A stretch of 64,000 bases of DNA, from contig JBCCLB010000015.1 in NCBI GenBank assembly GCA_039027095.1, positions 34,331-98,330 on the forward strand, in the 5' to 3' direction. The number at the start of each line of letters is the position of its first letter. Within the stretch, counting starts at the first letter, position 1. Origin of the DNA: Myxococcota bacterium (GTDB lineage: Bacteria > Myxococcota_A > Polyangia > Polyangiales > Polyangiaceae). The notes below the pieces were generated by a model. That model did not search any database, was not told the DNA's origin, and saw only the letters and a program-made list of their open reading frames with translations. A program made the position numbers and the translations under genes. This document shows positions 4,057-47,795 of this stretch, one piece after another.

Positions 4057-4059
4057 CCA

Positions 4060-5925: not shown

Positions 5926-6855
5926 TCTCAAGAGCTGCGCGCTGATGCTGACCGCGATTTCGGCCGGCGTGTCGCTCACCATGGGCAGGCCGACGGGAGC
6001 GGTGACCCGAGACCAGACGCGCTCGTGTCCGCTCTCGACGAGAGCTTCACGAATGAACCGGAGCTTGGCGGGGCTGCCCATGAGGCCCAAGAACGGGGTC
6101 GCGACGTCGGCCAGGCCGCGGAGGGCGTCGATGTCCGAATGCGCGGCGGCGGTCATGACCACGACGTGACTGAGCGCCGGGTAGTCGACGCAATCCGCGA
6201 CCTGGTCCCACGCGTCGACGACGGTGACGGTCGCCGGATCGTGCGCCCCGACGATGGCCGCCTCGGAACGCGTCTCTACGACCCGAACCCGGTAGCCGAG
6301 CGCGCGCAGGGCGCGCGACAGGGCCAGCCCGCAATGCCCTCCCCCGAGGATCACCACGCGCCGGTGGTTGATCGCATGCTCGGCGAACCCTTCCGGCCAA
6401 TGGCGTCGCGGCCCGTGCTGGGGATCGACCGGGCGAGCGACGATGCTCATCTCGCCCTCATTCACGACGAGTTCGGCTTCCTCCGCTTCGGTCCGCTGGA
6501 GGGTGGCGAAGCGGAGGAGGGTCTCCGCGGCGTCGGGGCCAAGCCGAACCTCGAGATGACGCTGGCGACCCGCGCAGATCAGGCCCGACGGGGTACCATC
6601 CCCGGTGACGCGCCGTCGGTGATGGAGATCGAGCGCACGCCAGCGGGGGGTGTCGGCGTTCCGCGCGCGGGCGAGCACGTTGGCCTCCATGACGCCCCCA
6701 CCGATCGTACCGACGCTCGTCCCGTCCTCGCGCACGAACAGTTTGGCGCCCCGGCTGCCCGGAGAGTGCGCGGTGTGGTCCACCACCACGACGAGAAAGG
6801 CGCGCCCTCCTTCGGCCAGGTAGGTTCCGAGTTCGCCCCAGAACGATTCGTTCAT
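5878..6855 (-). CDS. xdhC: XdhC/CoxI-family molybdenum cofactor insertion accessory protein
   Basis: N-terminal XdhC-type segment (FLVVVVDHTAHSPGSRGAKLFVREDGTSVGTIGGGVMEA) and a Rossmann-like segment (RVVILGGGHCGLALSRALRALGYRVRVVE). ATG 6855 overlaps the xdhB stop by 4 nt (ATGA). Confidence 0.85.
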   Translation of the reverse strand: MNESFWGELGTYLAEGGRAFLVVVVDHTAHSPGSRGAKLFVREDGTSVGTIGGGVMEANVLARARNADTPRWRALDLHHRRRVTGDGTPSGLICAGRQRHLEVRLGPDAAETLLRFATLQRTEAEEAELVVNEGEMSIVARPVDPQHGPRRHWPEGFAEHAINHRRVVILGGGHCGLALSRALRALGYRVRVVETRSEAAIVGAHDPATVTVVDAWDQVADCVDYPALSHVVVMTAAAHSDIDALRGLADVATPFLGLMGSPAKLRFIREALVESGHERVWSRVTAPVGLPMVSDTPAEIAVSISAQLLRSRPVLFPWERPARAT

Positions 6856-9185: not shown

Positions 9186-9219
9186 CTTGTTTCTCACCGT
9201 GGCGTCGGGGCCCACCGGG

Positions 9220-10731
9220 CTACTGGGCGGCCGCGAGCTCGGGGCCCATGTGGGCCAATGGATCGATCTCATCGAAGAGCTCGGTGAAGTGCGCGAGCAA
9301 GAGCTGGCGCGCCAGCAGTCGCTTGTACCGAGCCGACCCGCGCACGTCGTCGATCGGCGTGGCTTCCCCCGCCGCGATGCTGAGCGCTTCTCCCACCACG
9401 GCGGGCGAGAGGCGTTTCCCCTGGAGAAAGATCCCGGTGCGCGTGAGCAGCTTGGGGGTGGGACCGACCCCGCCCATGCTGATCGCCGCGTGGGTCAGTA
9501 CGCCCGCCTCCCGCTCGAAGCGTGCGCCCGAGCACACGCTCGCGATGTCGAGCGCCTTGCGCTTCGATACCTTTTCGAAGTTGGTGAGGGTGTGCGCCGT
9601 CTCCCGAGCGAGGCGGATTTCGACGAGCAACTCGCCGGGGCGCTTGTCGAGTTGCTTGTAGCCTCGATAGAGATCACGAAGCGCGACGTCGCGGCGATCG
9701 TCGCCCTCCGCCAGCACGAGGGTCGCCCCGAGGGCGAGCAGGAGGTTGGTCATGTCGCCGATGGGCGAGGCGTTGACGATGTTTCCGCCGAGGGTGGCCC
9801 GATTGCGGATCGGTCGCGATGCAATGAGCCAGAGAAATCGATCGATACGAGGTACGAGGCGGCGGACGGCCTCGTGCTCGGCGAACTCGGTAAACGTCGT
9901 GAGCGCCCCCAGACTGAGGACCGGCCCTTCTTCGCGAATGCCGCGAATCCGAGGGTATTGCGCCGCGACGTCGTCCGCGGTGAGGAGACGGACCGGAGCC
10001 CCGGGGATTTCGGCGCCGCGCTGAACGTAGAGGTCGGTGCCTCCGGCGAGAAACAGGGGGGTGGGTGGCGTCGGCGCCGCGGGGGGAGGGGCGGGCGACA
10101 TTTCGGGTGACATTTCGGGTGACATTTCCGCCAGACGGTCACCGATCGAGGCGAAGTAGGACGGCAGGAGCTCGGCCTCGACGAGGGCGGGAAGGCGGTC
10201 GCCCTCGGGGGGACCCTTGGCCTTTACGGTCGCGAGGATGGCGTCGGCCGCCCTTTCGATGGCGTTGTACCCGGTGCATCGGCAGAGGTTGCCGCTGATG
10301 GCTTCGCGCATGCCTTCCCGCGACAAGTCGGCCCCCTCGGTCACGATCACGTACCACGTCATCGCGACGATGAATCCCGGGGTGCAGTAGCCGCACTGGG
10401 TGCCGCCATGGTGCACCATTTCTTCTTGCACCACGCTCAGCCGGCGTCCGGCCTGCCGGGACCGGGTGAGGTTGAGTCCCTCGACGGTGACGACGTGTTT
10501 GCCCGCCATTTCTCCGAGGGGCACGAGGCAGGCCGTCATCAATTCGTACCGCGGGCGACCGCCGTCGAGGGCGCCGACGAGAATTGCGCAGGCGCCGCAA
10601 TCGCCCTCCTTACAGCCTTCTTTGGTGCCCGTGAGTCGGCGTTCGCGTACGAAGTCGAGGACGAGGCGGCCGCGTGGCGCGTCCGTCTCCACGACTTCAT
10701 CGTTCAGCATGAAGGTCGTCGTCGCTCCCAT
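9220..10731 (-). CDS. xdhA: xanthine dehydrogenase small subunit (2x[2Fe-2S] + FAD-binding domain)
   Basis: Contains CKEGDCGACA (plant-type 2Fe-2S), GTQCGYCTPG...CRCTGY (second 2Fe-2S) and LFLAGGTDLYVQ (FAD domain). Size and gene order match bacterial xdhABC. Confidence 0.9.
   Translation of the reverse strand: MGATTTFMLNDEVVETDAPRGRLVLDFVRERRLTGTKEGCKEGDCGACAILVGALDGGRPRYELMTACLVPLGEMAGKHVVTVEGLNLTRSRQAGRRLSVVQEEMVHHGGTQCGYCTPGFIVAMTWYVIVTEGADLSREGMREAISGNLCRCTGYNAIERAADAILATVKAKGPPEGDRLPALVEAELLPSYFASIGDRLAEMSPEMSPEMSPAPPPAAPTPPTPLFLAGGTDLYVQRGAEIPGAPVRLLTADDVAAQYPRIRGIREEGPVLSLGALTTFTEFAEHEAVRRLVPRIDRFLWLIASRPIRNRATLGGNIVNASPIGDMTNLLLALGATLVLAEGDDRRDVALRDLYRGYKQLDKRPGELLVEIRLARETAHTLTNFEKVSKRKALDIASVCSGARFEREAGVLTHAAISMGGVGPTPKLLTRTGIFLQGKRLSPAVVGEALSIAAGEATPIDDVRGSARYKRLLARQLLLAHFTELFDEIDPLAHMGPELAAAQ
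10097..10132. repeat. 12-bp in-frame tandem repeat (3 copies) inside the xdhA inter-domain linker
   Basis: The sequence gacatttcgggt gacatttcgggt gacatttccgcc encodes EMSPEMSPEMSP on the reverse strand. It lies between the Fe-S and FAD domains. Confidence 0.9.
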
Positions 10732-10749
10732 CTTCCTCGAGGTACCTTA

Positions 10750-10927: not shown

Positions 10928-12505
10928 TCAGCGGGATGGTCGCGTGCTCGGGTGGGGGCGGCGACGCGGGACCGACCGCCGCTCTGTCCACCGCCCCTCT
11001 GTCCACCAGCGGTCGGCATCGGCGGTGGTCCACGTCGGATACGCCTCCGACGCCATCAGCGCCTCGGCGACCGTGCGGGCATCCTCGAAGCGATCGGACG
11101 GGTTCTTCTCGAGCAGGCGAAGAATCACCACCTCGAGTTTCTCGTCGATGGCCATCCCGAGTCGTTTCGATGGCGGCACGGGGCAGGAATGCAGGTGATG
11201 GCTACACACCTCGACCGCCGTCTTGCCGACGAATATGTCTTCGCCGGTTACCAAAAAGTAACCGAGTGCGCCCAGGGCGTAGAGGTCCACCGGGGGGCCG
11301 ACCCGGTCGGGGTCCGTAATCGTCTCGGGCGCGAGGTAGCCCGGGGTTCCCGCCACCACGTCGGCCTCGGTGAGATGGCGGCCGCCGGCGGGCTCGACTT
11401 CTTTGACGAGCCCGAAGTCGAGCACTTTCACCACGTCGGGCATCTCGGCGAGGTGGCATAGAAATACGTTGGCCGGCTTGATGTCGCGATGAACCAGGCC
11501 GTGACGGTGCGCTTCGTGAAGCGAGCCGCAAATCTGCGTCAGAATACGGGCGACGCGACCCGCGGGTTGGGGACCATCGCGCTCGACCAATTCGGCGAGG
11601 TCGATCCCGTCGAGCAGCTCCATCGCGTAATAGAACACGCCCTCCTCACTGCGCCCGAAGTCGTAGATGTGCACGGTGTTAGGGTGATGGAGTTCACTCG
11701 TGAGCTGCACTTCCCGCTCGAAACGACGCGCCGCGAGGTCGCCCGTCTTTTCGGCGGGAAGCAGCTTCACCGCCGTGGGGCGGCGCAACATCGCGTGTTG
11801 CGCTCGGTACACGATGCCCATGCCGCCTTCGCCGATCTTTTCCTTCAGCGTGTACTGGCCGAGCCGCTCAGCTGTTTTCGCCCGCTCGCGCAGCCCGCTC
11901 ACGATGGACGAGCCGTAACCCGCGAGCCCCGACGCGATGACGGCGGACGTGGCCACGGCGGCGGTTTGAATTGCGGGGGCGACGACCTGGGTCGCAGGCA
12001 TCCGCCACGCCAAGTACGCCTGGACGGCCACGAGAGGCGCGAAACACGCCAGTGAGACCCCCACCGTGCGCTGGCCTGAACTCGGGATGATGAGGGCCCG
12101 GCCGAACACGAGAAACCCCACGAATACGATCCCCATGTAGGGACCGACGCGAAGGTCGCGATTCAGGTACACGGTGCCGGCGAGAAGCGCCGCGGGATCG
12201 GTGACGCAGGCGACGTCGGCCCAGCGTGCGACCTTGGGGCTCCAGCGGCCGCGGGCCGCCGACCGCCAAAGACCGCCCATGAAAACGAGGGCCAGCCCGA
12301 TCACGAGAAAGCTGCCGGGCCTGATGCGCTGGCCCGTCTGCGTCAGCACCCGGGTCATGCCCATGGCCGTGCCTTGCACGAGCATCACCCCCAACATGGC
12401 CCGCGCGAACATCGCGACGCGCTCCTGCAAGAACGCGCGCCCCGCTTGCGTGGAGACGTCGATGGCGGCCCCACGAAATCCGATGGGGAGGGGAACGGTG
12501 GTCAT
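10928..12505 (-). CDS. membrane-embedded Ser/Thr protein kinase (polytopic N-terminus, C-terminal Hanks kinase domain)
   Basis: Kinase motifs GEGGMGIVYRA, AVKLL, HRDIKPANVF, DFG and GTPGYLAPE. About 220 N-terminal residues carry several hydrophobic helices. ATG 12505 overlaps the polX stop (ATGA). The track ORF extension to 13600 overlaps polX in another frame. Confidence 0.9.
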   Translation of the reverse strand: MTTVPLPIGFRGAAIDVSTQAGRAFLQERVAMFARAMLGVMLVQGTAMGMTRVLTQTGQRIRPGSFLVIGLALVFMGGLWRSAARGRWSPKVARWADVACVTDPAALLAGTVYLNRDLRVGPYMGIVFVGFLVFGRALIIPSSGQRTVGVSLACFAPLVAVQAYLAWRMPATQVVAPAIQTAAVATSAVIASGLAGYGSSIVSGLRERAKTAERLGQYTLKEKIGEGGMGIVYRAQHAMLRRPTAVKLLPAEKTGDLAARRFEREVQLTSELHHPNTVHIYDFGRSEEGVFYYAMELLDGIDLAELVERDGPQPAGRVARILTQICGSLHEAHRHGLVHRDIKPANVFLCHLAEMPDVVKVLDFGLVKEVEPAGGRHLTEADVVAGTPGYLAPETITDPDRVGPPVDLYALGALGYFLVTGEDIFVGKTAVEVCSHHLHSCPVPPSKRLGMAIDEKLEVVILRLLEKNPSDRFEDARTVAEALMASEAYPTWTTADADRWWTEGRWTERRSVPRRRPHPSTRPSR

Positions 12506-14271
12506 GACCCCAGCCCCCGACGCGCGCGTTTTCTCTGCCGCCACGACATGAACCGCTCGCGGCTCCACGTGTTTACGATCCGTGCGGGGTCGAGCCACGC
12601 GCGACGGCAATGGATCCGCCCCCAATCCATGCGCATCAATTCTCGGTGATGGTGCGCGTCGGAGGTCATGATGAAGACGACGTCGCGGTCGCGGGCGCGC
12701 CGGAGGATGGCGACGCTCACGTCGAGACGGGGTAGCCCGCAGTTCACTTCGAGCGCCGTTTCCGTACGCTCCGCCGCGTCGAAGATCGCATCGAGGTCGA
12801 GGTCGACCGGAGGGCGTTTGCCGATGGTCCGACCGGTGAGGTGTCCGATCATCTGCACCGAAGGGTCCTCCATGGCGCGGATGAGCCGTTGGGTTTGGGC
12901 GTCGCGCGGTAGGTCGAAGTGGCTGTGGATCGACGCCAGACACCAGTCGAGGCTCATCCGAAAGTCGAGGTCGTAGTCGAGACTCCCGTCTCGGCCGATG
13001 TTGAGTTCGGCGCCGTGGAGCACCGTGAGGGTGTCGTCCGAGAGGGCTTCGATTTCGGCGCGTTGGGCCGCGAGCTGGGCCCGGGGAACGCCCTGCCGGG
13101 GGATGTCCTCGGCGTGTTCGGTAATGGCGAGGTAGCGGTATCCGCGCGCGCGTGCGGCCGCGACCACCTCGGCGAGCGGGCTCCGGCCGTCTCCGCTCAA
13201 GTCCGTGTGGACGTGAAGGTCGCCGAACACCGAACCCACCGGTGGGGGCAGGCGATGGGCCTCGGCGGCTTCGATCTCCCCCGCGTCTTCGCGCAGCTCG
13301 GGGGCGATCATGTCCAGGCCGAGGGCGTGGTAGATCTCTTCCTCGGTTTCCGCCGCGATGGTCGCGCCGGTGCGGGCGCACGCGAGGCCATACTCGTTGA
13401 GGGTTTGACCCCGCGCCAGCGCCCGTTGGCGGAGCTTGACGTTGTGCGCCTTGCTCCCGGTGAAGTAGAGCAGCGCCGCGCCGTACTGATGGGGGGCGAC
13501 CACCCGCATGTCGATCTGGAGGCCCTTGCGCGTCGACACGCTCGTCTTCTTGTCGCCGTGGACGAGGACCGCGTCGACCATGCTGAGCTTCGTCAGCCAC
13601 TCCATGATCGGCCGTGGGTCCGCCTCGCTCACCACGAGCAGGTCGAGGTCGCCGATCGTCTCCTGAAAGCGGCGCAAACTGCCGGCGTACGCCGCGTCGC
13701 GGACGTCATCCCGCGCGCGAAGGGCGGCGATGAGCCGTTGGGCAATGGGCATCGCCTTGGCGATCGCGATCCGACGGGGTGTCGACGGGGCGCCATCCGT
13801 CCCCGCCTCGCCCAGCCCGAGCCGCTCGAGGGTGGCTTTGAGCTTTTCTTCCTTTTTGGCCCCGAAACCCGCGAGTCCTCGGAGCCGCTGCCCTTCGAGG
13901 GCGTCGCGTAGTGCAGCGATCGACGTGACGCCCAACTCGCGACGGAGCTTGTCGACCGCTTTCGGTCCGATCCCCGGGATCTGGCTCAAGGCGACGACCG
14001 AGGGCGGGTACGCTTCGCGCAACCGGTCGAGCTGATCGAGATGGCCCGTGTCGAGAAAGGTCCGGATCTTCTTCGCCGTGCTCTTGCCGATGCCCTCGAC
14101 CGAGATGAGCTCTTTCTCGCCCATCGCTTCGATGTCTCCGACGAGCGACGCCACCGCGCGCGCGGCGCGTTCGTACGCGCGGACCCGGAACGCCTGTGGA
14201 CTCTGCTCGTCGAGGGTCGTGAGCTCGGCGAGCTCACGGAGCAAGTCCACGACGTCCGGTTTGCGATCCAT
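12502..14271 (-). CDS. polX: DNA polymerase X family protein with C-terminal PHP domain
   Basis: HhH motifs (GIGKSTAKKI, GIGPKAVDKL), nucleotidyltransferase segment GSLRRFQETIGDLDLLV, and PHP motifs DLHVHTDLSGDG, ITEHA, TSDAHH. Confidence 0.9.
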   Translation of the reverse strand: MDRKPDVVDLLRELAELTTLDEQSPQAFRVRAYERAARAVASLVGDIEAMGEKELISVEGIGKSTAKKIRTFLDTGHLDQLDRLREAYPPSVVALSQIPGIGPKAVDKLRRELGVTSIAALRDALEGQRLRGLAGFGAKKEEKLKATLERLGLGEAGTDGAPSTPRRIAIAKAMPIAQRLIAALRARDDVRDAAYAGSLRRFQETIGDLDLLVVSEADPRPIMEWLTKLSMVDAVLVHGDKKTSVSTRKGLQIDMRVVAPHQYGAALLYFTGSKAHNVKLRQRALARGQTLNEYGLACARTGATIAAETEEEIYHALGLDMIAPELREDAGEIEAAEAHRLPPPVGSVFGDLHVHTDLSGDGRSPLAEVVAAARARGYRYLAITEHAEDIPRQGVPRAQLAAQRAEIEALSDDTLTVLHGAELNIGRDGSLDYDLDFRMSLDWCLASIHSHFDLPRDAQTQRLIRAMEDPSVQMIGHLTGRTIGKRPPVDLDLDAIFDAAERTETALEVNCGLPRLDVSVAILRRARDRDVVFIMTSDAHHHRELMRMDWGRIHCRRAWLDPARIVNTWSRERFMSWRQRKRARRGLGS

Positions 14272-14927: not shown

Positions 14928-15734
14928 ATGAAGTCGATCGCCGTCGCCAGTCCCAAGGGAGGGGTCGGAAAGACCACCGTGGCGCTCCAGCTGGCCCACG
15001 CCCTCGTCAAGCGGCACCACCGCGCCTTGCTCGTGGACGGCGATCCCCAGGGCGCGATCGGCCTGTCGCTGTCGCCCAAACTCAACGCCGTACCCGGGTT
15101 CTCCGCGTTCATCGCCGAGGGGCGTCCGCTCGCGGAGGTCGTGGTGCCGACCCGCGTCGATGGCTTCGCGCTGCTTCCGGTGGGCCGGATCGGCCCGTAC
15201 GAGACCGAAGCCTTTGGGGCGGCGCTCGCGAGCGGAGAGCGACTGCGGCGCTTGGTCGACGAGGCCGCGGCCGACTACGACGTCGTGCTCTTCGACACCC
15301 CGAGCGGGTTTGGGGGGATCACGACCGGGGTGCTTCGCGCGGTGTCCTATGCCGTCTCGCCGCTCCAGGCCGAGCCGGTGGCGCTGCGAGCGCTGACGCA
15401 ACTTCTCGAAATGGTTCAGGTCTTGCGGCAAGAGGGGGCGGCCGTGCGGCTGGTCGGGCTCATCGTGACGATGCTCCAGGTCCGCAACGAGCATTCCTTC
15501 GACGTGGCCCGGGAACTGTTGGACCAATTCCCGCCCGACCTCCTCTTCAGTGCCAACGTGCCGCGTGACCCGGTGTTTTTGGAGGCGACGGCGAAAGGGG
15601 TCCCCGTCGGTCTGCTCCGTCGCCCCGCGCCGCCGGTGACGCACGTGTTCGACCTCATCGCGGCCGAGCTCGAGGAGCGGATGGGTCTGGTGGAGCAAGC
15701 GAGGAGCGATGAGCCCCAGCCTTTCCTGGTTTGA
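14928..15734 (+). CDS. ParA/MinD-family P-loop ATPase
   Basis: Begins MKSIAVASPKGGVGKTTVAL (deviant Walker A with signature Lys) and contains LLVDGDPQG and VVLFDTPSG. 268 aa. First gene of the five-gene cassette. Confidence 0.9.
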   Translation: MKSIAVASPKGGVGKTTVALQLAHALVKRHHRALLVDGDPQGAIGLSLSPKLNAVPGFSAFIAEGRPLAEVVVPTRVDGFALLPVGRIGPYETEAFGAALASGERLRRLVDEAAADYDVVLFDTPSGFGGITTGVLRAVSYAVSPLQAEPVALRALTQLLEMVQVLRQEGAAVRLVGLIVTMLQVRNEHSFDVARELLDQFPPDLLFSANVPRDPVFLEATAKGVPVGLLRRPAPPVTHVFDLIAAELEERMGLVEQARSDEPQPFLV

Positions 15735-16554
15735 GCCCATGGAGGTGAGCACGTTGCTCGGCGAACTTCCCGCGCGGAAAGAGGCCGTCAATCGCTTCGC
15801 GGGCATGGCGCGACGCGACCCCGGGCGGTTTGCGACCTCGGTGTCGACCCAGCCCGGGCCGGTGCCCGCGGCCGATGACGAGGACCACGACGAGGATTTC
15901 GACGCCAAGGCGACGCGTCTGGCGGCGGGGGCCGCGCGTCGTCCGGGGGGTGGATTTCCGCCGGCCGAGCCGATCCCATCGACGGCCGACGGGCCGCCGC
16001 GCGTGACCAAGCCACGACGCCACCGGGGCACGATCACGGCGCCCCCGTCTTCGTCGGAGCCCGACGGATACCCGGAGTCGGCCGATGTCCCTTCGTCGCG
16101 CCCCGCGCCGGTTCCTCCGTTCGTGGCGCCGCTTGGACCTTTCGAAGCGCGGCTCGAAGCCCTGCTCCAGTGGTGCCTCAGCGGTTGGACGGCGCCCGGG
16201 TTGCGCGGCGGGGCGGTGGCCGACCACGACGGGCTCCCGGTCGCCTTGGTGCCCCCGCCCGCGGGATCGGTTCCCATCGAACCCTCGTGGGCGCCGCTCG
16301 TCGCGGGCGCGCTCGAAGCGGCGGTTCAGGCGCTCACGGCGAGTGGGACCATCAAGGAGGGCCAGATCGCCTTCGAACGCGACGAGGGGAGCCGATGGGC
16401 GGCGGCGTGGGTCCCCGCCGTCGCGGGGCGACGGTGGTTCTTGCTGCTCTGGGGACGCGATGTGCCGACCGGGGTGCCTTGGGCGGCCATGATCGACGCG
16501 TTTCGCGAAGTATGTCGACGCGGACGCCACGAGCGAGGAGTCGGGACGTCGTGA
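15709..16554 (+). CDS. Roadblock/LC7 (MglB-like) domain protein with disordered acidic/Pro-rich N-terminal half
   Basis: The C-terminal ~130 aa (LEALLQWCLSGWTAPGLRGGAVADHDGLPVALV...GQIAFERDEGSRWAAAWVPAVAGRRWFLLLWGRDVPTGVPWAAMIDAFREV) has the Roadblock pattern; the assignment is by eye. ATG 15709 is preceded by GAGGAG and lies 26 nt inside the ParA-like gene. Alternative ATG at 15739. Confidence 0.65.
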   Translation: MSPSLSWFEPMEVSTLLGELPARKEAVNRFAGMARRDPGRFATSVSTQPGPVPAADDEDHDEDFDAKATRLAAGAARRPGGGFPPAEPIPSTADGPPRVTKPRRHRGTITAPPSSSEPDGYPESADVPSSRPAPVPPFVAPLGPFEARLEALLQWCLSGWTAPGLRGGAVADHDGLPVALVPPPAGSVPIEPSWAPLVAGALEAAVQALTASGTIKEGQIAFERDEGSRWAAAWVPAVAGRRWFLLLWGRDVPTGVPWAAMIDAFREVCRRGRHERGVGTS

Positions 16555-17609
16555 ACGAAGGGTTGCGGATCCGGTTGGAGGAGACGCGGGTGCTCCTGAG
16601 CCTGAGCCTGGTCGCTCCGGGCACGGCGGGGGGGCGCACCGTTTCCGACCGGTGGGTTCGAAGCGGCGCGTCGGGGTCTTCCCACGCCGGTGGGAGCGAC
16701 CCTACGTCGGAGGCCCGGGCCCTCGAGCTGGCGCGGTCGTTCGACATCGTGGCGGGCGCAGACCGCGCCGTCGACGCGATGCTCACCGCGGAAACGGACG
16801 TCGAGCTGGCCGTCGTCGTGCCCAGGGGCGCGACGGATCTCGCGGTCCTCTCCTTTCGCCCCTCGACCCCGCTCGGGCTCGTGCGGCTCATCGTCGCGCG
16901 GGCCCGCCCGTGGCTGGAGGAGGGCGCAAATGCGGCGTCCCCGCCGTCGGTCAAGCCGATCGAGCCGGTCGTGGCGCCCTCCGGCCCCCCGATCACGGCG
17001 TCGTACGAAGGCGCGCCCTCCCCTGCGACCGATGATGAGGACGTTCGACCGGGACTCCCGCCTCCCACCCAGCCGCCTGGGCCCGTCGGTGACCCCCGAC
17101 CCGAGCCGCCGCGCGAGACACAAACGCCGGGCGACACCGGACCGCCGGCGCCTCCGCTCGTGGCGGCGCGGCAGCCCCAAGCGGCGCCGACGTTGACGAG
17201 CCCGTCCCAGTTCCAGGCCGCGTCGAAAACGGTGGCGCGCGATGCGGCGGCGCCTCCGGCGGCGATGCGATCCGATTCGGCGCCGCCCCTCCTCGGGCCC
17301 TCGGGCGGCGCGGGACCCGGGTCTGGTGGAGGCGGCGACAGCGCGCGCTTCGCCGGACCCCCGGCGGGGGCGACACGGCCGACCACCACCCTCTCCGAGG
17401 CGTCGTCGGAGGCGGCGGCGCGGGGCGTTCGGCTCCTCGCGTACCTCGATGCCCACGCCGATGATGCGCATCTCGCCTTGCTGCGCGTGTCGCTTCAGAC
17501 CGGCCTCAGCATCGAGACGCTGCGCGCTCCCGAGGCGCTCGATGAGGACGCGTTGGAGTTCGTGGCGGCCTCCGTCCGTCGGATCCTGGGGCGCCCGCTG
17601 GAGATGTGA
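16551..17609 (+). CDS. Roadblock/LC7 (MglB-like) N-terminal domain protein with long Pro-rich linker and small C-terminal helical domain
   Basis: The N-terminal ~125 aa ends DLAVLSFRPSTPLGLVRLIVARARPWLEE, which closely resembles the MglB C-terminal strand/helix (SLGLVRLRIKKA, recalled from memory). GTG 16551 overlaps the upstream stop (GTGA) and has GAGGAG 10 nt upstream. Alternative ATG at 16512. Confidence 0.7.
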   Translation: MNEGLRIRLEETRVLLSLSLVAPGTAGGRTVSDRWVRSGASGSSHAGGSDPTSEARALELARSFDIVAGADRAVDAMLTAETDVELAVVVPRGATDLAVLSFRPSTPLGLVRLIVARARPWLEEGANAASPPSVKPIEPVVAPSGPPITASYEGAPSPATDDEDVRPGLPPPTQPPGPVGDPRPEPPRETQTPGDTGPPAPPLVAARQPQAAPTLTSPSQFQAASKTVARDAAAPPAAMRSDSAPPLLGPSGGAGPGSGGGGDSARFAGPPAGATRPTTTLSEASSEAAARGVRLLAYLDAHADDAHLALLRVSLQTGLSIETLRAPEALDEDALEFVAASVRRILGRPLEM

Positions 17610-18862
17610 CCATGTCCGCCCTGCTCTACGACCACCGCGATGCGCTCCCCCAGCACCACCTCCGGTTCTTCGCCGGGTCGGCGGTCGTGGTGCAGCACCC
17701 CTCCTTCCTCGCGGCCTTCGACCAGGTCGTCGACGACGCGCTCGGGCCGTCCCGCGGTCCCGCCAGTCGTCTCCGCTGCGCGCAACAAGCGAGTCGTCCT
17801 CTCCTCAAGCGGCTCGTCCATCGCATGTTGCCGACCTCGCCCGCACAGCGCCTCGACATCGCGCGACAGGTGTTCGCCGCCCTCGGACTGGGCCAGCTTT
17901 CTCTCGACGTCACGCCGGCCGGCGGTCGGGCGCGCGTACGCCACCCATTTCGTCTGTCCCTCGAGCCCGCGACGACCGGGGGGCCGGGCCGACCGTGGCC
18001 CCTCGATGCGATCGCGGGCGGCTTTGCCGGGGCCGCCACCGAGGTCGCCTTCGATCTTCCCTCGGGACTCATCGCCGTCGTGCCCGAAGCGTTGGGCCCC
18101 GAGGGTTCGTTTCGGCTCGACGCGAGGGGCACCGCGATGGAGGTGCGCACGCCGCACCAAGCGCAGATCCGAGAGCTCGTTCCGAGCAGCTTTGGGGGCC
18201 TGCACGAGGACCGCATCGCCGAGCGGTCCATCGACGCCCTGGCCCGCATCGAGGGAGCCGCTGGCGACGACCGGGGTGACCTGCGGGATCGGGACCAACG
18301 GCTCGCCTTCGTCCCGGCCGACTACGGACATGCTCTGACCCATCACCTTTTGGCGACGGTCACGGAGGAAAAGCCCAAGGCCCTGCCCGCCGCGCGGGCC
18401 TTGCTCGCGGAGGCGGGGTACACGCACGCCTTTCTCGGGCTCGGTCGCGCGCTCGCGGCCGGGGGAACCGCCTTGGCCGCGGGGGGGCGCTCGCCGCTGG
18501 AGGTACTGGTCGACGGCTTGGCCGTGGCGCGCGCCTGGGGGTGGGGACGCTGGTGCGTGGAGGTCTTCGTCCCCGAGGAGCGCCTCGTCCTCAGGAGCCC
18601 GGGCACCCCGGAGAGCCTCTACGTGGCCTGCACGGTCGAGGGCGCCGACCGGCCGCAAGCCCACGCGCTGGAAGGGGCGGGGGTGGCGCTGATGGACCTC
18701 GCCCACCGGACGGAGTGGACGCCCACCCCGAACCTCGACGCGCGCACGGTCACCGCGAATCGGCGGGCGCCGACGTGGACGGCGACCGTCACCCACAGCG
18801 TGGCGGTTGGGGATCCGGTCGACCGCGTGGTGGTCCAGCGGATCGACGGAGCGTCGCCGTGA
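17606..18862 (+). CDS. hypothetical protein of two similar halves (possible V4R-like ligand-binding repeats)
   Basis: Strong G/C third-position bias in this frame. GTGA overlaps at both ends (17606-17609 and 18859-18862). The halves AALGLGQLSLDVTPAGGRARV...LDAIAGGFAGAATEVAF and ARAWGWGRWCVEVFVPEERLVLR...HALEGAGVALMDLAH share a pattern. The antisense ORF 17495..18796 is rejected. Confidence 0.7.
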   Translation: MTMSALLYDHRDALPQHHLRFFAGSAVVVQHPSFLAAFDQVVDDALGPSRGPASRLRCAQQASRPLLKRLVHRMLPTSPAQRLDIARQVFAALGLGQLSLDVTPAGGRARVRHPFRLSLEPATTGGPGRPWPLDAIAGGFAGAATEVAFDLPSGLIAVVPEALGPEGSFRLDARGTAMEVRTPHQAQIRELVPSSFGGLHEDRIAERSIDALARIEGAAGDDRGDLRDRDQRLAFVPADYGHALTHHLLATVTEEKPKALPAARALLAEAGYTHAFLGLGRALAAGGTALAAGGRSPLEVLVDGLAVARAWGWGRWCVEVFVPEERLVLRSPGTPESLYVACTVEGADRPQAHALEGAGVALMDLAHRTEWTPTPNLDARTVTANRRAPTWTATVTHSVAVGDPVDRVVVQRIDGASP

Positions 18863-19413
18863 CGTGCGTCGTCGGTTTGGTCGCCGGCGGCCGCGTCTAC
18901 GTCGGGGTCGATTCCGCCGCGGTCGCGGGCTGGACCCGACGGGTGACGGAGGTGAAGAAGGTCTTTCGCCGGGGGCCCTTTCTCATCGGCTACACCACCA
19001 GCTTCCGCATGGGGCAATTGCTCGAACACCAATTGGAGGTCCCCAAACAGCCGGCCGGGGCGAGCGACATCTCGTTCATGGTGACCACGTTCGTCGACGC
19101 CGTGCGGACGCTCTTCAAGGAAAAGGGGTTCGCGAAGGTCGAGAGCAACAGCGAGTCCGGGGGACAATTCATCGTGGGCTACCGGGGGGGGCTCTACACC
19201 ATCGAGAGTGACTTTCAGGTCCAACTCCAGGCCGACCGATTCGACGCGATCGGCAGCGGCAGCGCCCACGCCCTCGGGGCGATGGACGTCCTGCGCGACC
19301 TCGCGCCGACCCCGCGTATCAAGCGGGCGCTGGCGGCCGCCGCGCACTTCAACATGGGGGTATGCCCCCCGTTTTTCGTGCGCTCGATGGCGGGCCCCAA
19401 GCGGGGGTCCTGA
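18859..19413 (+). CDS. HslV/proteasome-beta-like Ntn hydrolase (T1-type Thr peptidase), orphan
   Basis: The GTG start gives M-TCVVGLVAGGRVYVGVDSAAVAGWTRRVTEVKKVFRR. After Met removal this places Thr1, Asp17 and Lys33 exactly in proteasome numbering. A later AIGSGSAHALGAMD matches the GSG(G/S) motif of HslV and beta subunits. 184 aa, HslV-sized. Track ORF 18541..19413 is trimmed to the GTGA junction. Confidence 0.8.
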   Translation: MTCVVGLVAGGRVYVGVDSAAVAGWTRRVTEVKKVFRRGPFLIGYTTSFRMGQLLEHQLEVPKQPAGASDISFMVTTFVDAVRTLFKEKGFAKVESNSESGGQFIVGYRGGLYTIESDFQVQLQADRFDAIGSGSAHALGAMDVLRDLAPTPRIKRALAAAAHFNMGVCPPFFVRSMAGPKRGS

Positions 19414-19582: not shown

Positions 19583-20284
19583 ATGGCAGACATCCCCGAG
19601 CCGAACGACGACGATCCCGAAGACGTCCGCTGGGCCTTGTCTACCGCCGAGCGATTGGTGGCGACGGGGGCCCGGGAGGCGGCCGCGCGGTGGCTGCGGC
19701 GGGCGGCGTCGGCCGCGCGTGACCACGATCGGGGCGACCGTGCGGAAGAGATCGACACCGCCGCCCGGAATTGGGACACCCCCGCCGCGGCGGGGATCGA
19801 TGACGAGGCGACGGTGGTGTCGACGACCCCCGAGGTCGCGCTCGCGCCGGAGGGACGGAGGTCACGATCGACGAAACCGTCGACGGCGAGCCGGACGCCG
19901 GCGTCGCGCCTCGTCGTCGACTCGGTGCTGCCGCCTTCCACCGAGCGCGAACCGCGCATCGTGACCCGTCGGGCCGGGGTTCGGGACACCGCGGAAGACA
20001 CCCGGATACCGGCCGTCGTGCGCGCGACGGCGCGTGACGACGCGAGCACCCTTCCGCCGACCTCTTCTTCGCCGCCCGCGGGGACCGTCGGCGAGTCTTC
20101 GGACACGATGATGTCGTACTCCCGCTATCGGGTGGCGGTGCTTGCGTCCTCCGACGATGCGCATCCTCGGCTGCTCCGGCTCCGCGACGGAGAAGCGGCG
20201 CCCCCCGGAGCCGCCATGGCGTTTCTCGTGCCGGAGTCGGCCGAGGATGGGGCCGCCATCGCGGCCCTGTTCGAGCTCGGCTGA
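19583..20284 (+). CDS. hypothetical, largely low-complexity acidic/Arg-rich protein
   Basis: ATG is preceded by AGGAGA. G/C third positions. N-terminal helical segment (VRWALSTAERLVATGAREAAARWLRRAASAAR), then a Ser/Thr/Pro/Arg-rich region. No family recognised. Confidence 0.6.
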   Translation: MADIPEPNDDDPEDVRWALSTAERLVATGAREAAARWLRRAASAARDHDRGDRAEEIDTAARNWDTPAAAGIDDEATVVSTTPEVALAPEGRRSRSTKPSTASRTPASRLVVDSVLPPSTEREPRIVTRRAGVRDTAEDTRIPAVVRATARDDASTLPPTSSSPPAGTVGESSDTMMSYSRYRVAVLASSDDAHPRLLRLRDGEAAPPGAAMAFLVPESAEDGAAIAALFELG

Positions 20285-21055: not shown

Positions 21056-22252
21056 TCAGCGCCGGGCCCGATACGTGTCGAGAAATGCGCGCCATGGCGT
21101 CCCCGCGGGAAGGCGCGCCTCGGCCCGATGAGGGCGACCTCCTCCGCGCCCGTCGTGCTCGGCGCACAGCGCGCGTACGAACGCGCCACAGTCGAACGTC
21201 GCCTCCTCCCCGCGAACGGCGAGCACCACCACCGCAACGTCGTCCTCCCCGGTGGCGGCGGCGACCACGGTCGTGCGGCGGGGATGGCGGGCGGCGCGCT
21301 TGCCCACTTCGCGCACCAAGTCGACCGGCGCCTCGGCGAGGTCGAGCACTTGCCACTCAGTGTCGTGGTCGAGCAGGTGCTCACTCATCTGTTCGCACAG
21401 CCCTTTCAACTGGCGGGTGCGGCGACGCTGCTCGGCCTGGAGGCGCGCGACGGCGGACGGGACTTCGGTCGGTGCGGTCGACAATTCGCGCCCCAGCGCC
21501 CGCAGCGCGCTCGACTCGGCTTGCGCCAACGCCCGCGCCTTGTGCCCGGCGGCGAAGTGGATGCGCAGCCGTCGCTTATGCCGCTCGGTCCCGAGCAGGG
21601 TCACCAACCCCACCGCCGACGTGTGGCCGCAGTGGGTGCCGCCGCAGGGCGTGATGTCGACGTCGCCGATCGCGACGACGCGCACATCACGGGACACGGA
21701 TGGCGCTTTGCGCAACGGGAGACGGGCGAGCTCGTCGGGCGCGGGAAAGTAGGCGCGAATGGGGACGTCCCGATCCACGACGTCGTTGGTCCAGGCGAAT
21801 ACGGCGGCCAAGGCGCTCGGCTCCAGGTGCTCGCGGTCGACGTCGACCGTGCAACCGGAGGCGCCGAGCCGCGAGGACACGGTGATGGCGCCGACCTCGT
21901 CGAGCAAAGCCCGTGACAAGATGTGCTGACCGGTGTGCTGGGCCATGTGAAGGCGGCGTCGCGCCGCGTCGATGTGACCCTCGACCGAGGCGCCGTTCTG
22001 CACGTCGGGGGGAACCGACCTCGTCAGGACATGCGCGACCTCGCCATCGGTGCCGATCTGAACGTCGGCCACCTCGAGGTCGTGGCCCGCCACCGACAGC
22101 ACGCCTCGGTCGGCCAGCTGTCCCCCCGATTCCGGATAGAACGCGGAGCGGTCGAGCACGAGGGCCGGGCGCTCGCCATGCGCGATCACTGCCACCACGT
22201 GCGCGGTGAACGCGAGGCGCAGTGAATCCGCGTAGTGCAACCGCTCCGTCAT
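21056..22252 (-). CDS. alaX: alanyl-tRNA editing protein, AlaX-L type
   Basis: HTGQH (HxxxH) and CGGTHC (CxxxH) zinc motifs of the Ala/Thr-tRNA synthetase editing domain. 398 aa. Confidence 0.85.
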   Translation of the reverse strand: MTERLHYADSLRLAFTAHVVAVIAHGERPALVLDRSAFYPESGGQLADRGVLSVAGHDLEVADVQIGTDGEVAHVLTRSVPPDVQNGASVEGHIDAARRRLHMAQHTGQHILSRALLDEVGAITVSSRLGASGCTVDVDREHLEPSALAAVFAWTNDVVDRDVPIRAYFPAPDELARLPLRKAPSVSRDVRVVAIGDVDITPCGGTHCGHTSAVGLVTLLGTERHKRRLRIHFAAGHKARALAQAESSALRALGRELSTAPTEVPSAVARLQAEQRRRTRQLKGLCEQMSEHLLDHDTEWQVLDLAEAPVDLVREVGKRAARHPRRTTVVAAATGEDDVAVVVLAVRGEEATFDCGAFVRALCAEHDGRGGGRPHRAEARLPAGTPWRAFLDTYRARR

Positions 22253-26946: not shown

Positions 26947-27010
26947 TGACCCGGGGACCGCGGCGCGTGTTTTTTTGCCGCCCCGGGTTGGCTAGGGTCT
27001 CTCGTGGGGC

Positions 27011-29953
27011 GTGATGAGGTCCGAGTCATCGGGGAAAGAGGCGCTGCGCTCCGAGGCGGCGCCGTGGTCTTTGCGAGGCGACGAGGACCCGTCTCCGGTG
27101 ACCCGCCGGTCCGGCGCTCCGACCGGGGGGGGCGCGCCGAGTCACGACGCCGCCTACGGGGAGACGCTCGCGGCAGAGAGCATCGTACGCCCCAACCTCG
27201 CCGCCTTCACCGCCGCCGTCCCGGCCGAAGAGGGCCTCACCCGGGGTGACGCCGGGCGTTACGAGATCCAGGGCGAGCTCGGCGAAGGGGGGATCGGGCG
27301 GGTCTACGTGGCGCGCGACCTCCACCTCGGGCGGAGGGTCGCGCTCAAGGAACTCCTCCACGAGGTGCGGGCGTCGATGCGACCCACGGTCGACGGCCAA
27401 CGCACCCCCGTCGAGTTGCGCTTCGTCAATGAGGCGCGGATCACCGGACAGCTCGAGCATCCCGGCATCGTCCCCGTCTACGAGTTGGGGCGACGCGACG
27501 ACGACACCGTGTATTACACGATGCGCCTCGTGCGGGGGCGAACCCTCGAGGAAGCCCTGACCACGGCCGAGCTGAGCGATCGCCTCGCGCTGCTGCCGCA
27601 CGTCGCCGACCTCTGCAACACGATGGCGTACGCCCACAGCCGGGGCGTCATCCACCGGGATCTCAAGCCCGAGAACGTGATGCTCGGGGACTTCGGGGAG
27701 ACGGTGGTGCTCGATTGGGGCCTCGCCAAAGTCAAAGGCGAGACCGACGTTCAAGGCGATGCGCTCGAAGACGAACTCCAGCGGTTGATGACCGCCTCGG
27801 TCATTCAAACGGTGGCCGGCGTGCCGATCGGTACGCCCGCGTACATGTCGCCCGAGCAGGCGCGGGGCCACGCCGACGAGATCGACGAACGAAGCGACGT
27901 CTACGCGCTCGGCGTCATTCTCTACCAAATCATCACCGGCGTGATCCCTTTCGATGGCGACAACGCCAAGGAGGTCATCGATCGCGTGTGCGACGAGCAC
28001 CCGGTCGACGTGATGGAGCGAGCCCCCAACTGCCCGCCGGAGCTGGCGGCGATCACGGCGCGGGCCATGGCCAAAGATCCGCGCGACCGATACCCCGATG
28101 CCCGTGCGCTGGCGGGAGACCTGAGCGCTCACCTCTCGGGCGGGGTGGTGCGGGCGCACCGCTATTCTCCCGCTGCGCGTTTGGCGCGTCTGTGGCGTCG
28201 CCGTCGCCGGACCATTCTCGCCGCGGCGCTCGTGCTCGCGGGGACGCTGTTCGCGTGGTGGTACCGCGGGGTAGCGGAGTCGCGACGCCAAGAGGCGGAG
28301 GCGCGACGCATCCGGGAGACGGCGGTGGCCGATGTGGACCGCATCATTGCCGACGTCGCGGCCGGCGACACCGAAGAACGATGGCTCGAGGTCCTGACCT
28401 TCAAGATCCTCAGCCTGCGCGATCCCAACTCCGCCCCGGCGATCGAGGATCACCTGATCGCAGCCGTCGCGCATCCCTCGCCCGACGTACGACGCCTCTC
28501 GGCGCGCACGTTGGCGGCGGTGAAATCGACCAAGGCCATCGATGCCCTCGTGTACCGTCTGGGGCCGGAGGTCGAGACGGTTCCGGAGGTCTTGGTCGAA
28601 GTGATCAACGCCCTCGGCGTGATCGGCGACCCGCGGGCGGAGGCGGCGGTACGCGAAGCGCGCGTCCGGGCCGGACAGTACGGATATTTGTGGACCCAGA
28701 CGGAGCTCTCCTACCGGATGATCCCCCTGCCGGAGGTGCCCGCCGGTCGGACCCTGACTGCGGCCGAATGGCGGACCCGCGGGACCGCGCTGTGGTGGAA
28801 GGGTGATGTCGACCAGGCGCTCGCCGCGCTCGACCGGGCCGTTGCGCTCGACCCCAACGACCGCGACGCCTTCATCAACCGCGCGGTCGTACGCCGTCGC
28901 GCCGGCGACTTCGTAGGGGCGCTCGCCGATTACGACCGGCTGCTTCAGCTGGCCCCCGACAACACGCTGGCCCTAAACAATCGCGCCATTCTCAAGCGAG
29001 CGATGGAGGATTATCGCGGCGCGCTCGAGGATGCCGACCGCGTGGTGGCGCAAGGAACGCTGGGGGCCCGCGCGTTGAGGACGCGGGCCCTGATCAAGCG
29101 CTTCGCGGGCGACCTCGCCGGGGCCCAAGAAGACTTGATGGCGGCGCTCGAGATCGATCCCGACGATGCCCGCACGTACGCGAACATCGGGTTGATGCAC
29201 ATCTGGGCGGGCAATTGGGACGAAGCCCAGGTGTCGCTCGACGGCGCGATCCGCATCAACGACGGCTATACCTACGCGTACACGCTGCGCGCCCGGGTGC
29301 GGTGGATGTTGGGGCGGGTCGCGGAAGCACAGTCCGACATCGAGCGCGTGCTCTCGCTCGACCCTGAAGACAATCGAGCGCGGCGGCTTCGCGCCCGGAT
29401 CCTGATGGTCGAAGGGGAGGACGCGGGGGCGAAGCGCGACCTCGACTACTGTCTGGAACGCCCCTGCATCAGCGACCAGCGTCGCCGTCCCCTGCGGCAC
29501 GCGCAACGCGGGGTCGTCTACTACGCCGAGCTCCGTCGTTACGCCGAGGCGGTGCAAGAGCTGGAGATGGCCCTCGCCGGGGAACCGCGCGACGTCGACG
29601 CGTTCGAGTACCGGTTGGCCGCTTTCGCCGTGAGTCGGCGCCAGGGGGACGCGGTGGCGGAGCAGAGGTGGCTGGAGGAGTTGACGCAGATGCCTCGGGG
29701 ACGCCGCCTGAGGTGGTACCAGCGCATCGTCGACATGCTGCGAGGCGACGTGCAGCCCGAATCCTTGGCGGTGATGATCCGCGCCCCCGAGCAGCGGTGC
29801 GCGCTCTTTCTCGCCTCCGGGCTTCGGGCCGAACGCGCCGGCCGCCCGGACCAAGCGCGCCGGTCCTACGCGGAGACGCGCGACCTCGGTGCCCCGGACG
29901 AGATCGCGTGCGTCCTCGCCGACCAGGCCCTGCGCGCCCTCGACGGGGCCTGA
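27011..29953 (+). CDS. Ser/Thr protein kinase with TM segment, HEAT-like and multiple TPR repeats
   Basis: Kinase motifs GEGGIGRVYVA, ALKEL, HRDLKPENVML, DWG (DFG variant) and TPAYMSPEQ. TM segment ILAAALVLAGTLFAWWY. HEAT-like HPSPDVRRLSARTLAAV. Repeated TPR signatures (ALDPND, LAPDN, IDPDD, LDPED). Confidence 0.9.
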   Translation: MMRSESSGKEALRSEAAPWSLRGDEDPSPVTRRSGAPTGGGAPSHDAAYGETLAAESIVRPNLAAFTAAVPAEEGLTRGDAGRYEIQGELGEGGIGRVYVARDLHLGRRVALKELLHEVRASMRPTVDGQRTPVELRFVNEARITGQLEHPGIVPVYELGRRDDDTVYYTMRLVRGRTLEEALTTAELSDRLALLPHVADLCNTMAYAHSRGVIHRDLKPENVMLGDFGETVVLDWGLAKVKGETDVQGDALEDELQRLMTASVIQTVAGVPIGTPAYMSPEQARGHADEIDERSDVYALGVILYQIITGVIPFDGDNAKEVIDRVCDEHPVDVMERAPNCPPELAAITARAMAKDPRDRYPDARALAGDLSAHLSGGVVRAHRYSPAARLARLWRRRRRTILAAALVLAGTLFAWWYRGVAESRRQEAEARRIRETAVADVDRIIADVAAGDTEERWLEVLTFKILSLRDPNSAPAIEDHLIAAVAHPSPDVRRLSARTLAAVKSTKAIDALVYRLGPEVETVPEVLVEVINALGVIGDPRAEAAVREARVRAGQYGYLWTQTELSYRMIPLPEVPAGRTLTAAEWRTRGTALWWKGDVDQALAALDRAVALDPNDRDAFINRAVVRRRAGDFVGALADYDRLLQLAPDNTLALNNRAILKRAMEDYRGALEDADRVVAQGTLGARALRTRALIKRFAGDLAGAQEDLMAALEIDPDDARTYANIGLMHIWAGNWDEAQVSLDGAIRINDGYTYAYTLRARVRWMLGRVAEAQSDIERVLSLDPEDNRARRLRARILMVEGEDAGAKRDLDYCLERPCISDQRRRPLRHAQRGVVYYAELRRYAEAVQELEMALAGEPRDVDAFEYRLAAFAVSRRQGDAVAEQRWLEELTQMPRGRRLRWYQRIVDMLRGDVQPESLAVMIRAPEQRCALFLASGLRAERAGRPDQARRSYAETRDLGAPDEIACVLADQALRALDGA

Positions 29954-33507: not shown

Positions 33508-33589
33508 TGGTCCGAGGGGGGAGGGGCGGCTCCTCGGTACCGTGATGCAATCGTGATAGTTCCCTCGGGCGGAGCGCCGTCTGAGGAAC

Positions 33590-36606: not shown

Positions 36607-36711
36607 GGGCGAAGCGTAGGCCGGGGCGAGGGGCCAAGCAATGGACGCGAGCGCGCCGAGCACAAGGGGGAAGGAATGAGGCCTTCAAACGTACATTGAG
36701 CCACAAGCGTC

Positions 36712-41036: not shown

Positions 41037-43190
<2,154 letters not shown>

Positions 43191-47774: not shown

Positions 47775-47795
47775 CGGATCCGAGGGTAACTCGGA

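Follow-up and report, generated by a model that had tools for sequence, protein, structure and literature searches.

An orphan HslV-like N-terminal-threonine hydrolase of Polyangia, most probably an AAH-type member of the group I proteasome homologues

The locus described here raises the question of whether a small HslV-like gene at the end of a ParA-type operon encodes a genuine proteasome-type hydrolase and, if so, to which lineage of proteasome homologues it belongs and whether its neighbours supply a partner for it. The gene lies at 18859–19413 (+) of the window, i.e., the whole 64,000-nucleotide stretch analysed (positions 34,331 to 98,330 of contig JBCCLB010000015.1, assembly GCA_039027095.1, from a Polyangiaceae member of Myxococcota), and an identical protein has been deposited as MEM1031860.1, 'hypothetical protein AAGN82_16035 [Myxococcota bacterium]'. 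Overall, the product is likely to be a cytoplasmic group I proteasome-like N-terminal nucleophile (Ntn) hydrolase of the AAH type, that is, a ring-forming protease with a catalytic N-terminal threonine (Thr1) that would act independently of an unfoldase and that owes its present genomic context to a deletion. The features of the gene are as follows.

18859..19413 (+): protease gene, putative AAH-type N-terminal-threonine hydrolase of 184 amino acids (aa); GTG start, TGA stop at 19411–19413
18848..18851 (+): Shine-Dalgarno-like GGAG, read in the sequence, 7 nt 5' of the GTG start
18862..18864 (+): Thr2 codon (predicted catalytic Thr1 once Met is gone); invariant, aligned with Thr1 of HslV, BPH, and beta5
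18910..18912 (+): Asp18 codon (mature Asp17); invariant, aligned with HslV Asp17
18958..18960 (+): Lys34 codon (mature Lys33); invariant, aligned with HslV Lys33
18988..19017 (+): GYTTSFRMGQ signature, residues 44–53; oxyanion-hole/S1-pocket segment (beta5 43–53), containing the invariant Arg50
19252..19260 (+): Gly132-Ser133-Gly134 (mature GSGS 131–134); counterpart of GSG in HslV (Ser124) and 20S beta (Ser129)

Translation of 18859–19413 (+) gave VTCVVGLVAGGRVYVGVDSAAVAGWTRRVTEVKKVF..., 184 aa, which, with the first codon V read as M, begins (V→M)TCVVGLVAGGRVYVGVDSAAVAGWTRRVTEVKKVF...; precursor numbering is mature numbering plus one (Thr2 is mature Thr1, and Arg50 is mature Arg49). The start codon GTG 18859, which overlaps the TGA of the upstream gene by 4 nt (GTGA), was well supported. 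The third-position guanine-plus-cytosine content (GC3) was 0.89 in the protease open reading frame (ORF) and 0.57 in its in-frame extension at 18541–18858, within which the upstream gene's own frame reached 0.93. A Met-Thr start was present in 25/25 close homologues and 69/69 diverse representatives, and also in 32 taxonomically labelled homologues, phage and plasmid copies included, while approximately 143 of the 150 best database representatives aligned from their own residue 1. A longer ORF starting at 18541 was ruled out as the true gene by codon-position GC and by the N-termini of the homologues. The original prediction had placed Thr1, Asp17, Lys33, and GSGS (131–134) on this frame, with GTG as the start, Thr at the N-terminus, and no propeptide. 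The catalytic positions were borne out by the translation, the start by GC3, the GGAG, and the Met-Thr starts of the homologues, and the lack of a propeptide by the recurrence of the MT start throughout them.

The catalytic register shared with HslV, BPH, and the 20S beta subunits is genuine and not coincidental. Searched against PDB as a single sequence with phmmer, the protein retrieved only 20S beta5 and BPH chains (E 0.003–0.08 overall and 0.017–0.08 for BPH), with query residue 11 corresponding to mature residue 10 and the GYTTSFRMGQ segment lying on beta5 FLLGTTAGGAADCQ. Among PHROGs, it matched phrog_1040, 'peptidase HslV family', with E 3.9e-25. A family profile built from 69 representatives, 36–54% identical to the window protein, matched HslV (E 1.5e-9), BPH (2e-7), and archaeal and actinobacterial beta subunits (5e-5 to 3e-4) in PDB, and its alignment placed T, D, and K on Thr1, Asp17, and Lys33, with GSG likewise in register. 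When this profile was compared by hhalign with a validated E. coli HslV, residues 1–180 aligned with residues 1–173 at 96.5% probability, E 1e-9, and 24% identity; BLASTP of the window protein alone against E. coli HslV was not significant (E 9.5). A poor score to the peptidase T1 model had been named in advance as the finding that would speak for coincidence, and the outcome depended on the level of the search: the single sequence did not match the Pfam Proteasome model (PF00227) at E ≤ 1, whereas at the family level 39 of the 69 representatives matched it (best E 1.5e-9) and the fold search described below was unambiguous.

Conservation followed the same residues. M1, T2, D18, K34, R50, and G132 were invariant across the 69 representatives, in which G134 was at least 90% conserved and the glycines aligned with AIGSGG of HslV, and 52 columns, including the whole GYTTSFRMGQ block, were invariant among 25 close sequences (62–83% identity). 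The GSG serine is replaced by Cys in the Streptomyces (VGCGDEY) and Brocadiaceae members.

The AlphaFold2 model of the protein (predicted local distance difference test score, pLDDT, 97.2) is compact, with S1–S11/H1–H4, helices at 49–58, 70–88, 135–144, and 150–164, and a last strand at 173–178, and it lacks insertions and a C-terminal S12/H5. The loop after H2 is short in the model (residues ~89–103) and carries the conserved E95 and E99. In a Foldseek search against PDB, the top matches were BPH chains (E 2e-12, template modelling (TM) score 0.78–0.82, 19–25% identity), followed by HslV (TM 0.67–0.74) and then 20S beta subunits; 873 matches had E ≤ 0.001, and 50/50 among the matches listed were BPH, HslV (including ClpQ), or 20S chains. 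Predicted structures of phage homologues in BFVD superposed at TM of about 0.9. The modelled fold is thus that of a proteasome-type alpha-beta-beta-alpha Ntn sandwich.

To which of the known homologues does the protein belong? Fuchs, Alva & Lupas described 22 new proteasome homologues (Bioinformatics 2021, PMC8665760). Their group I comprises HslV, BPH, AAH, CPH, PPH, RPC, and DPH; it is bacterial and phage-borne and centred on BPH, and its subunits are compact, without insertions or C-terminal S12/H5 and with no propeptides except in HslV (PMC8665760). AAH, counted as 240 nr90 sequences, occurs in alpha-proteobacteria, is most abundant in Actinobacteria, is carried by many phages, and reached Firmicutes and Bacteroidetes via phages (PMC8665760).

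The family of the window protein is most probably AAH, judging from its distribution, architecture, and affinities. It shares the group I affinity: in both profile and Foldseek order, BPH and HslV came closest, and the protein resembled beta more than alpha subunits and was not Anbu/WPH-like. It also has the architecture of AAH (a compact subunit of ~180 aa with H1–H4, no propeptide, insertions, or S12/H5, and no AAA+ partner), and its relatives show the host range of AAH, namely Actinobacteria, alpha-proteobacteria, Firmicutes, and phages. It differs in that a tight chromosomal Polyangia clade is unmentioned in PMC8665760, where Proteobacteria are marked and myxobacteria unnamed, and in that current metagenome data hold 7314 clusters at 50% identity versus the 240 nr90 sequences published.

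The other candidates fit less well. BPH (5OVS/5OVT/5OVU) is a Thr1 enzyme of ~200 aa that assembles as a tetradecameric double ring and reacts covalently with epoxomicin; it has no unfoldase, carries an elongated, highly acidic pore loop, and occurs in lineage-dependent operon contexts, some of them stress-linked (PMC5777263). It was the best structural match of the window protein, and both have Thr1 and lack a propeptide and an unfoldase; however, at 19–25% identity, phmmer E of 0.017–0.08, and profile E of 2e-7, the similarity fell short of family level, and membership in BPH was rejected on this ground. The loop after H2 of the window protein is short. HslV is similar in length, starts with MT, has the same Thr1/Asp17/Lys33/GSG set, and was the top sequence-profile match in PDB, but the pairwise E of 9.5, the lack of an NCBIfam HslV match, the absence of an hslU neighbour, and a segment before Gly45/Gly48 that is longer by 2 residues in HslV set it apart. 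A 20S beta subunit, which is made with an autocatalytically processed propeptide and is paired with an alpha-subunit gene, has the same Ntn fold and catalytic numbering from 1 to ~50; this identity was ruled out because the window protein has no propeptide and no alpha-subunit partner, and it also lacks the C-terminal H5. No second proteasome-like gene or canonical hslV was found in the window. PPH was ruled out because it has ~140 aa and lacks helix H2. Anbu was ruled out as no Anbu chain was among the PDB profile matches at E ≤ 0.01. Anbu operons encode transglutaminase-like, ATP-grasp, and alpha-E proteins, and no Anbu-type transglutaminase/ATP-grasp context was present among the window ORFs scanned. 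The 'Deltaproteobacteria' homologue PHD is an Anbu/WPH-like member of group II (PMC8665760). Among the closest known proteins are also the phage proteins of phrog_1040 (such as Geobacillus virus E3 gp65 and Moorella phage MTATph1 CDS0188; E 3.9e-25, TM ~0.9), whose genes lie amid early or nucleotide-metabolism genes, whereas the window copy is chromosomal and lacks phage genes in its surroundings. The evidence supports a lineage separate from HslV, Anbu, BPH, and 20S beta. The prediction of a distinct lineage of bacterial proteasome homologue held as to distinctness, on family profiles and fold, and failed as to novelty: the family is very large, is already labelled by PHROGs and JGI, and matches AAH.

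HslV, a dodecamer of two hexameric rings that the C-termini of HslU activate, depends on HslU for activity, and the window gene had been described as lacking an AAA+ partner. No AAA+ domain was detected in the window ORFs scanned, and tblastn with E. coli HslU, a probe validated against PDB, found no HslU-like sequence in 62 records (the window and 61 loci with ±10 kb, 1.09 Mb; best E 0.37), in agreement with that description as far as adjacent genes are concerned. A genomic context and a co-occurring AAA+ partner were found for none of the homologues surveyed in PMC8665760, so that the 'orphan' state had already been published for the group as a whole.

The following mechanism would be consistent with these observations. 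Methionine aminopeptidase cleaves Met before the small residue Thr, and it would strip fMet/Met before Thr2, thereby exposing the amine and hydroxyl of the catalytic Thr1. The Oγ of Thr1 would serve as the nucleophile, protons being relayed, as in proteasomes, by the α-amine of Thr1 itself together with Lys33/Asp17. The GSG serine and an oxyanion hole formed by the backbone of the GYTTSF segment would also take part in this proteasome-type peptide-bond hydrolysis. By analogy with BPH, the subunits probably assemble into a homo-oligomeric ring or double ring that probably needs no dedicated AAA+ unfoldase to act on peptides or unfolded proteins, and the enzyme may have a role in stress proteostasis.

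The family is extensive. One search returned 1268 homologue clusters at 90% identity, and 7314 clusters at 50% identity were obtained at E ≤ 1e-3, 1755 of them at E ≤ 1e-30; within-family E-values were below 1e-47, versus 1e-9 to HslV and 2e-7 to BPH. Used as a scan pattern, GYTTSFRMGQ recovered 52 genomic loci. Members at 33–49% identity were found in Streptomyces, Actinoallomurus, Nocardiopsis, Gluconacetobacter, a Brocadiaceae metagenome-assembled genome (MAG), Patescibacteria, and Bacillota, and the relatives at 40–49% identity comprised Streptomyces, Actinoallomurus, Nocardiopsis, Gluconacetobacter, Rhizobium, Sinorhizobium, and Mesorhizobium. Plasmids contributed 27 records, of which 22 were proteobacterial and the other five belonged to Bacillus and Streptomyces. 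All 22 proteobacterial matches lay on large plasmids, most of them conjugative, from alpha- and beta-rhizobia that nodulate legumes, the symbiosis megaplasmid hosts being Rhizobium, Sinorhizobium, Mesorhizobium, and nodulating Paraburkholderia. Homologues were also carried by 206 phage records, e.g., Moorella phage MTATph1, Geobacillus virus E3, and many Vibrio, Aeromonas, Salmonella, and Escherichia phages, at 29–43% identity over >90% of the length (tblastn); Tenacibaculum phages and Bacillus plasmids carry relatives as well. Many homologues bear the JGI label 'ATP-dependent protease HslVU (ClpYQ) peptidase subunit'.

Within Myxococcota, the gene appears as a settled component of the chromosome. 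When a neighbour-joining tree was rooted on E. coli HslV, the sequences from Myxococcota formed one tight clade at 60–83% identity. This clade had the Brocadiaceae MAG as sister and lay within members from rhizobial plasmids, Actinobacteria, and phages; HslV stood on a long branch. The Polyangia loci were partially syntenic (L numbers designate individual family loci), with PolX upstream and the following two genes downstream.

19583..20284 (+): downstream gene, 233 aa, no Pfam domain; recurrent within one Polyangia subclade, directly 3' of the protease gene in L004–L007, L009, L018, L022, and L062 (tblastn)
21056..22252 (−): AlaX-like gene (tRNA-synt_2c/tRNA_SAD); synteny marker, tblastn matches in L004, L006, L014, and L018

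This partial synteny, the host-like codon usage, and the very strong conservation fit a vertically inherited, single-copy chromosomal resident. The upstream gene differs by subclade. A PhnD-like gene lies upstream of the protease in 8 distinct Polyangia loci (9 records, L062 being identical in sequence to L063), and a PlsC-type acyltransferase in ~9, preceded by a 943-aa uncharacterised protein and with a convergent HSP20 pair after the protease; the remaining Polyangia loci have nothing recognisable upstream. The Myxococcota gene would thus have been inherited vertically and set behind different upstream genes in each subclade. The convergent HSP20 (alpha-crystallin) pair is directly downstream of the protease in ~10 Polyangiaceae loci (L001 10545–11380 (−), with equivalents in L012, L013, L015, L023, L024, L026, L030, and L036), and the R. 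etli plasmid copy has an Hsp20 gene 2 kb on its upstream side (L075 3875–4351). These neighbours give a weak hint of a stress or proteostasis role.

Several points weigh against the proposed AAH-type protease. Taken alone, the protein matched no Pfam model at E ≤ 1 (PF00227 included) and gave 0 NCBIfam matches at E ≤ 10 (HslV models included). The position of the oxyanion-hole Gly47 is occupied by Ser in the window protein, and Arg49, invariant in the family, is absent from characterised proteasome subunits; the chemistry, the specificity, or even the reaction type may therefore differ from those of the proteasome. The AAH assignment, which rests on distribution, architecture, and affinities, is strong but indirect, and the tree, which has no support values, is indicative only. 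Proteolysis, oligomeric state, and substrates are all inferred for the whole family, and a search of the available literature turned up no subsequent experiments on AAH or on the proteasome homologues of phages. The search for an ATPase covered the 64-kb window and the related loci, which leaves room for a distal one elsewhere in the genome, and the link to HSP20 largely reflects synteny in a single subclade.

A rival reading is a non-degradative Ntn enzyme, e.g., a sequence-specific processing peptidase, an amidase, or a connectase-like transpeptidase or ligase. In its favour, the substrate-binding segment has invariant features peculiar to the family, namely Arg49, a Ser rather than a Gly at position 47, and the GYTTSFRMGQ block. 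There is also a precedent in connectase, a proteasome homologue that acts as a monomeric ligase and has a helical insertion over its active site (PMC8665760), and in the assays reported BPH did not replace the missing cytosolic proteases or alter carbonylated-protein patterns (PMC5777263). Against this, the full Thr1/Asp17/Lys33/GSG set is conserved, and the predicted fold is compact and of the ring-forming BPH/HslV type, without connectase's insertion. We regard a non-degradative enzyme as unlikely, while giving it more weight than any other rival of the degradative AAH-type protease. A related and more far-reaching proposal, which we consider doubtful, is that the Polyangia/Myxococcota clade is a domesticated vertical branch of a largely phage- and plasmid-borne family. 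Its invariant Arg49, Ser47, and GYTTSFRMGQ pocket would then confer a distinct substrate chemistry (acidic-P1 specificity or a specific processing/ligation reaction), and it would be ATPase-free and possibly act in a proteostasis pathway linked to small heat-shock proteins.

It is much less probable that the gene is mobile-element or prophage cargo recently gained by this genome. The family is indeed common in phages, as the 206 records and the BFVD matches at TM 0.9 attest; copies occur on conjugative symbiosis plasmids with flanking insertion sequence (IS) elements; and phages have been argued to spread AAH (PMC8665760). Nevertheless, the Myxococcota members form one tight clade at 60–83% identity and share chromosomal synteny (PolX ... 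AlaX), the GC3 of 0.89 is like that of neighbouring host genes, no phage-like or PHROG genes adjoin the window protease, and a PADLOC scan with defence-system models gave no match.

The original prediction had placed the gene at the end of a ParA/Roadblock operon and proposed a novel activator or gating partner. The protease gene is the fifth of five co-directional genes in the window, the other four being as follows.

14928..15734 (+): first operon gene, ParA/MinD-like P-loop ATPase (Pfam AAA_31 4e-24, CbiA 9e-17, ParA 2e-10); not an AAA+ unfoldase
15709..17609 (+): two genes without a detectable domain (~269–281 aa and 352 aa), between the ParA and V4R-like genes; homologues only in L006 and L062
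17612..18862 (+): V4R/Bet3-like tandem protein gene, 416–418 aa; TGA overlapping the start of the protease gene; adjacent but not conserved as a partner

The shared strand of the five genes and the GTGA overlap, which implies a common transcript and coupled translation in this genome, speak for one of the operon products as activator or gate. The comparison with relatives points the other way. Neighbour conservation was scored by tblastn of defined neighbour proteins against related loci, and the four operon proteins, searched against 57 related loci, were found only in the 83%-identical relative L006; a second carrier, L062, was added through homologues of the V4R-like protein, so that the operon stands beside the protease only in the window lineage (L006, L062) among >55 loci. 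In both L006 and L062, the V4R-like and protease genes are separated by a PhnD-like gene of ~290 aa (Pfam Phosphonate-bd), which shares a 4-nt overlap with the protease gene. No trace of it was present in the window (18780–18862 compared with L006 9020–10004 and L062 3250–4214). The deletion junction lies in the last ~7 codons of the V4R-like gene, whose C-terminus differs from those of the relatives after DRVVV, and the protease start is GTG in the window, as it is in L030 and L036, whereas nearly all other Myxococcota loci have ATG. Since the PhnD-like gene stands between the two in both relatives and was lost in the window, the tight coupling is the scar of a lineage-specific deletion of the PhnD-like gene and does not point to a functional partnership.

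The overlap itself has a simple source. The family start was always ATG, GTG, or TTG followed by ACN (62 family loci), which produces a TGA in the +1 frame; because the start codon always precedes ACN, 4-nt overlaps arise with any upstream gene in that frame, and the built-in TGA helps explain the frequent apparent 'coupling' of the protease to unrelated genes. Gene callers would also extend spurious upstream ORFs to the protease start for the same reason.

The V4R-like protein is itself a poor candidate. It matched no Pfam, NCBIfam, or PHROG model and had only 5 homologue clusters among 5.8 billion proteins, versus thousands for the protease family, and its most distant homologue has no protease neighbour. 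Its AlphaFold2 model (pLDDT 72) weakly matched the sensor domains of PoxR/MopR/DmpR and TRAPP Bet3 in Foldseek, a small-molecule-sensor-like fold, and it was ruled out as an unfoldase or gate on its rarity and this fold. The 'Roadblock' label of the two middle genes was not confirmed, with no Pfam match at E ≤ 1 and no PDB sequence match. Of the claim about the operon, the co-directional last position thus stood, while conservation of the context and the 'Roadblock' label did not; the proposal of an operon-encoded activator or gate, given the restricted lineage, the intervening PhnD-like gene, and the sensor-like fold, is in our judgement highly improbable, and the ParA operon link is not worth pursuing as a partner hypothesis. 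The ParA/V4R-like operon as such (14928–18862, (+)) is extremely lineage-restricted and may represent a small new module with a regulatory or positioning function.

A bona fide HslV (ClpQ) with its HslU encoded elsewhere in the genome, which the JGI labels on many homologues, the top PDB profile match (E 1.5e-9), the HslV-like length, and the lack of a propeptide would favour, is equally hard to credit in view of the BLASTP E of 9.5, the profile identity of 24%, the lack of an NCBIfam HslV match at E ≤ 10, a structure nearer to BPH than to HslV, the absence of hslU from the 64-kb window and from the 10 kb around the gene in about 60 loci, the within-family E-values of <1e-47 versus 1e-9 to HslV, and the abundance of the family in Actinobacteria and phages, from which HslV has not been reported (Table 1, PMC8665760).

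The finding brings to light no new class of system: the 2021 survey had catalogued partner-less homologues of this kind, and the family is already listed as HslV-like in phage and COG resources. The family is nonetheless very large and spans phages, symbiosis plasmids, Actinobacteria, and Myxococcota, yet its function is uncharacterised, and the conserved Polyangia clade offers a clean chromosomal member for asking what an unfoldase-independent proteasome relative does. If the domesticated-branch proposal were true, characterising the protein would establish what is done by a proteasome relative that has no partner and occurs in thousands of bacteria and phages. The NCBI 'hypothetical' labels and the Pfam and NCBIfam misses also mean that annotation of the family could be improved.

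Further observations concern individual family members. The plasmid-borne homologues inspected were WP_013094614, WP_012406724, WP_006204368, WP_201662472, WP_037390207, WP_120671010, and WP_086083778, none of which is the AAH reference WP_035979212 (KEGG OC.661151). The contexts of the eight plasmid copies inspected (L066–L070, L074, and L075 among them) vary, and IS/transposase genes flank about half of them. On plasmid B of S. americanum CCGM7 (L070), the gene lies between nifQ and an Fe-S assembly gene/nifS, beside rpoN. In P. sabiae, P. phymatum, and P. atlantica, a related ORF of ~90 aa is directly upstream, annotated only in P. sabiae (4-nt start overlap), and an unrelated 87-aa ORF occupies the same overlapping upstream position in R. 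etli. The annotated start of Moorella phage MTATph1 CDS0188 (L071 3001–3558) is 42 nt 3' of the conserved Met-Thr, and the annotated protein would therefore lack the catalytic Thr1. The Streptomyces members (L041–L048 and L057) start with TTG followed by Thr, share extended synteny with one another, and are all labelled 'hypothetical protein' by NCBI.

Elsewhere in the window, two ORFs, 373–4059 (−) of 1229 aa and 45648–47795 (−) of 716 aa, have coding-like GC3 and no Pfam match at E ≤ 0.001. A xanthine-dehydrogenase-like molybdoenzyme pair lies at 6855–10746 (−), the PolX-type polymerase with a PHP domain at 12502–14271 (−), and a Ser/Thr kinase with TPR repeats at 26996–29950 (+). The EF-G gene at 41040–43268 (−) has an unusually skewed codon-position GC (0.61/0.38/0.91). 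A full-length serpin (Pfam Serpin 2e-112) at 33560–35029 (+) adjoins a convergent M1-family metallopeptidase at 35140–36684 (−).

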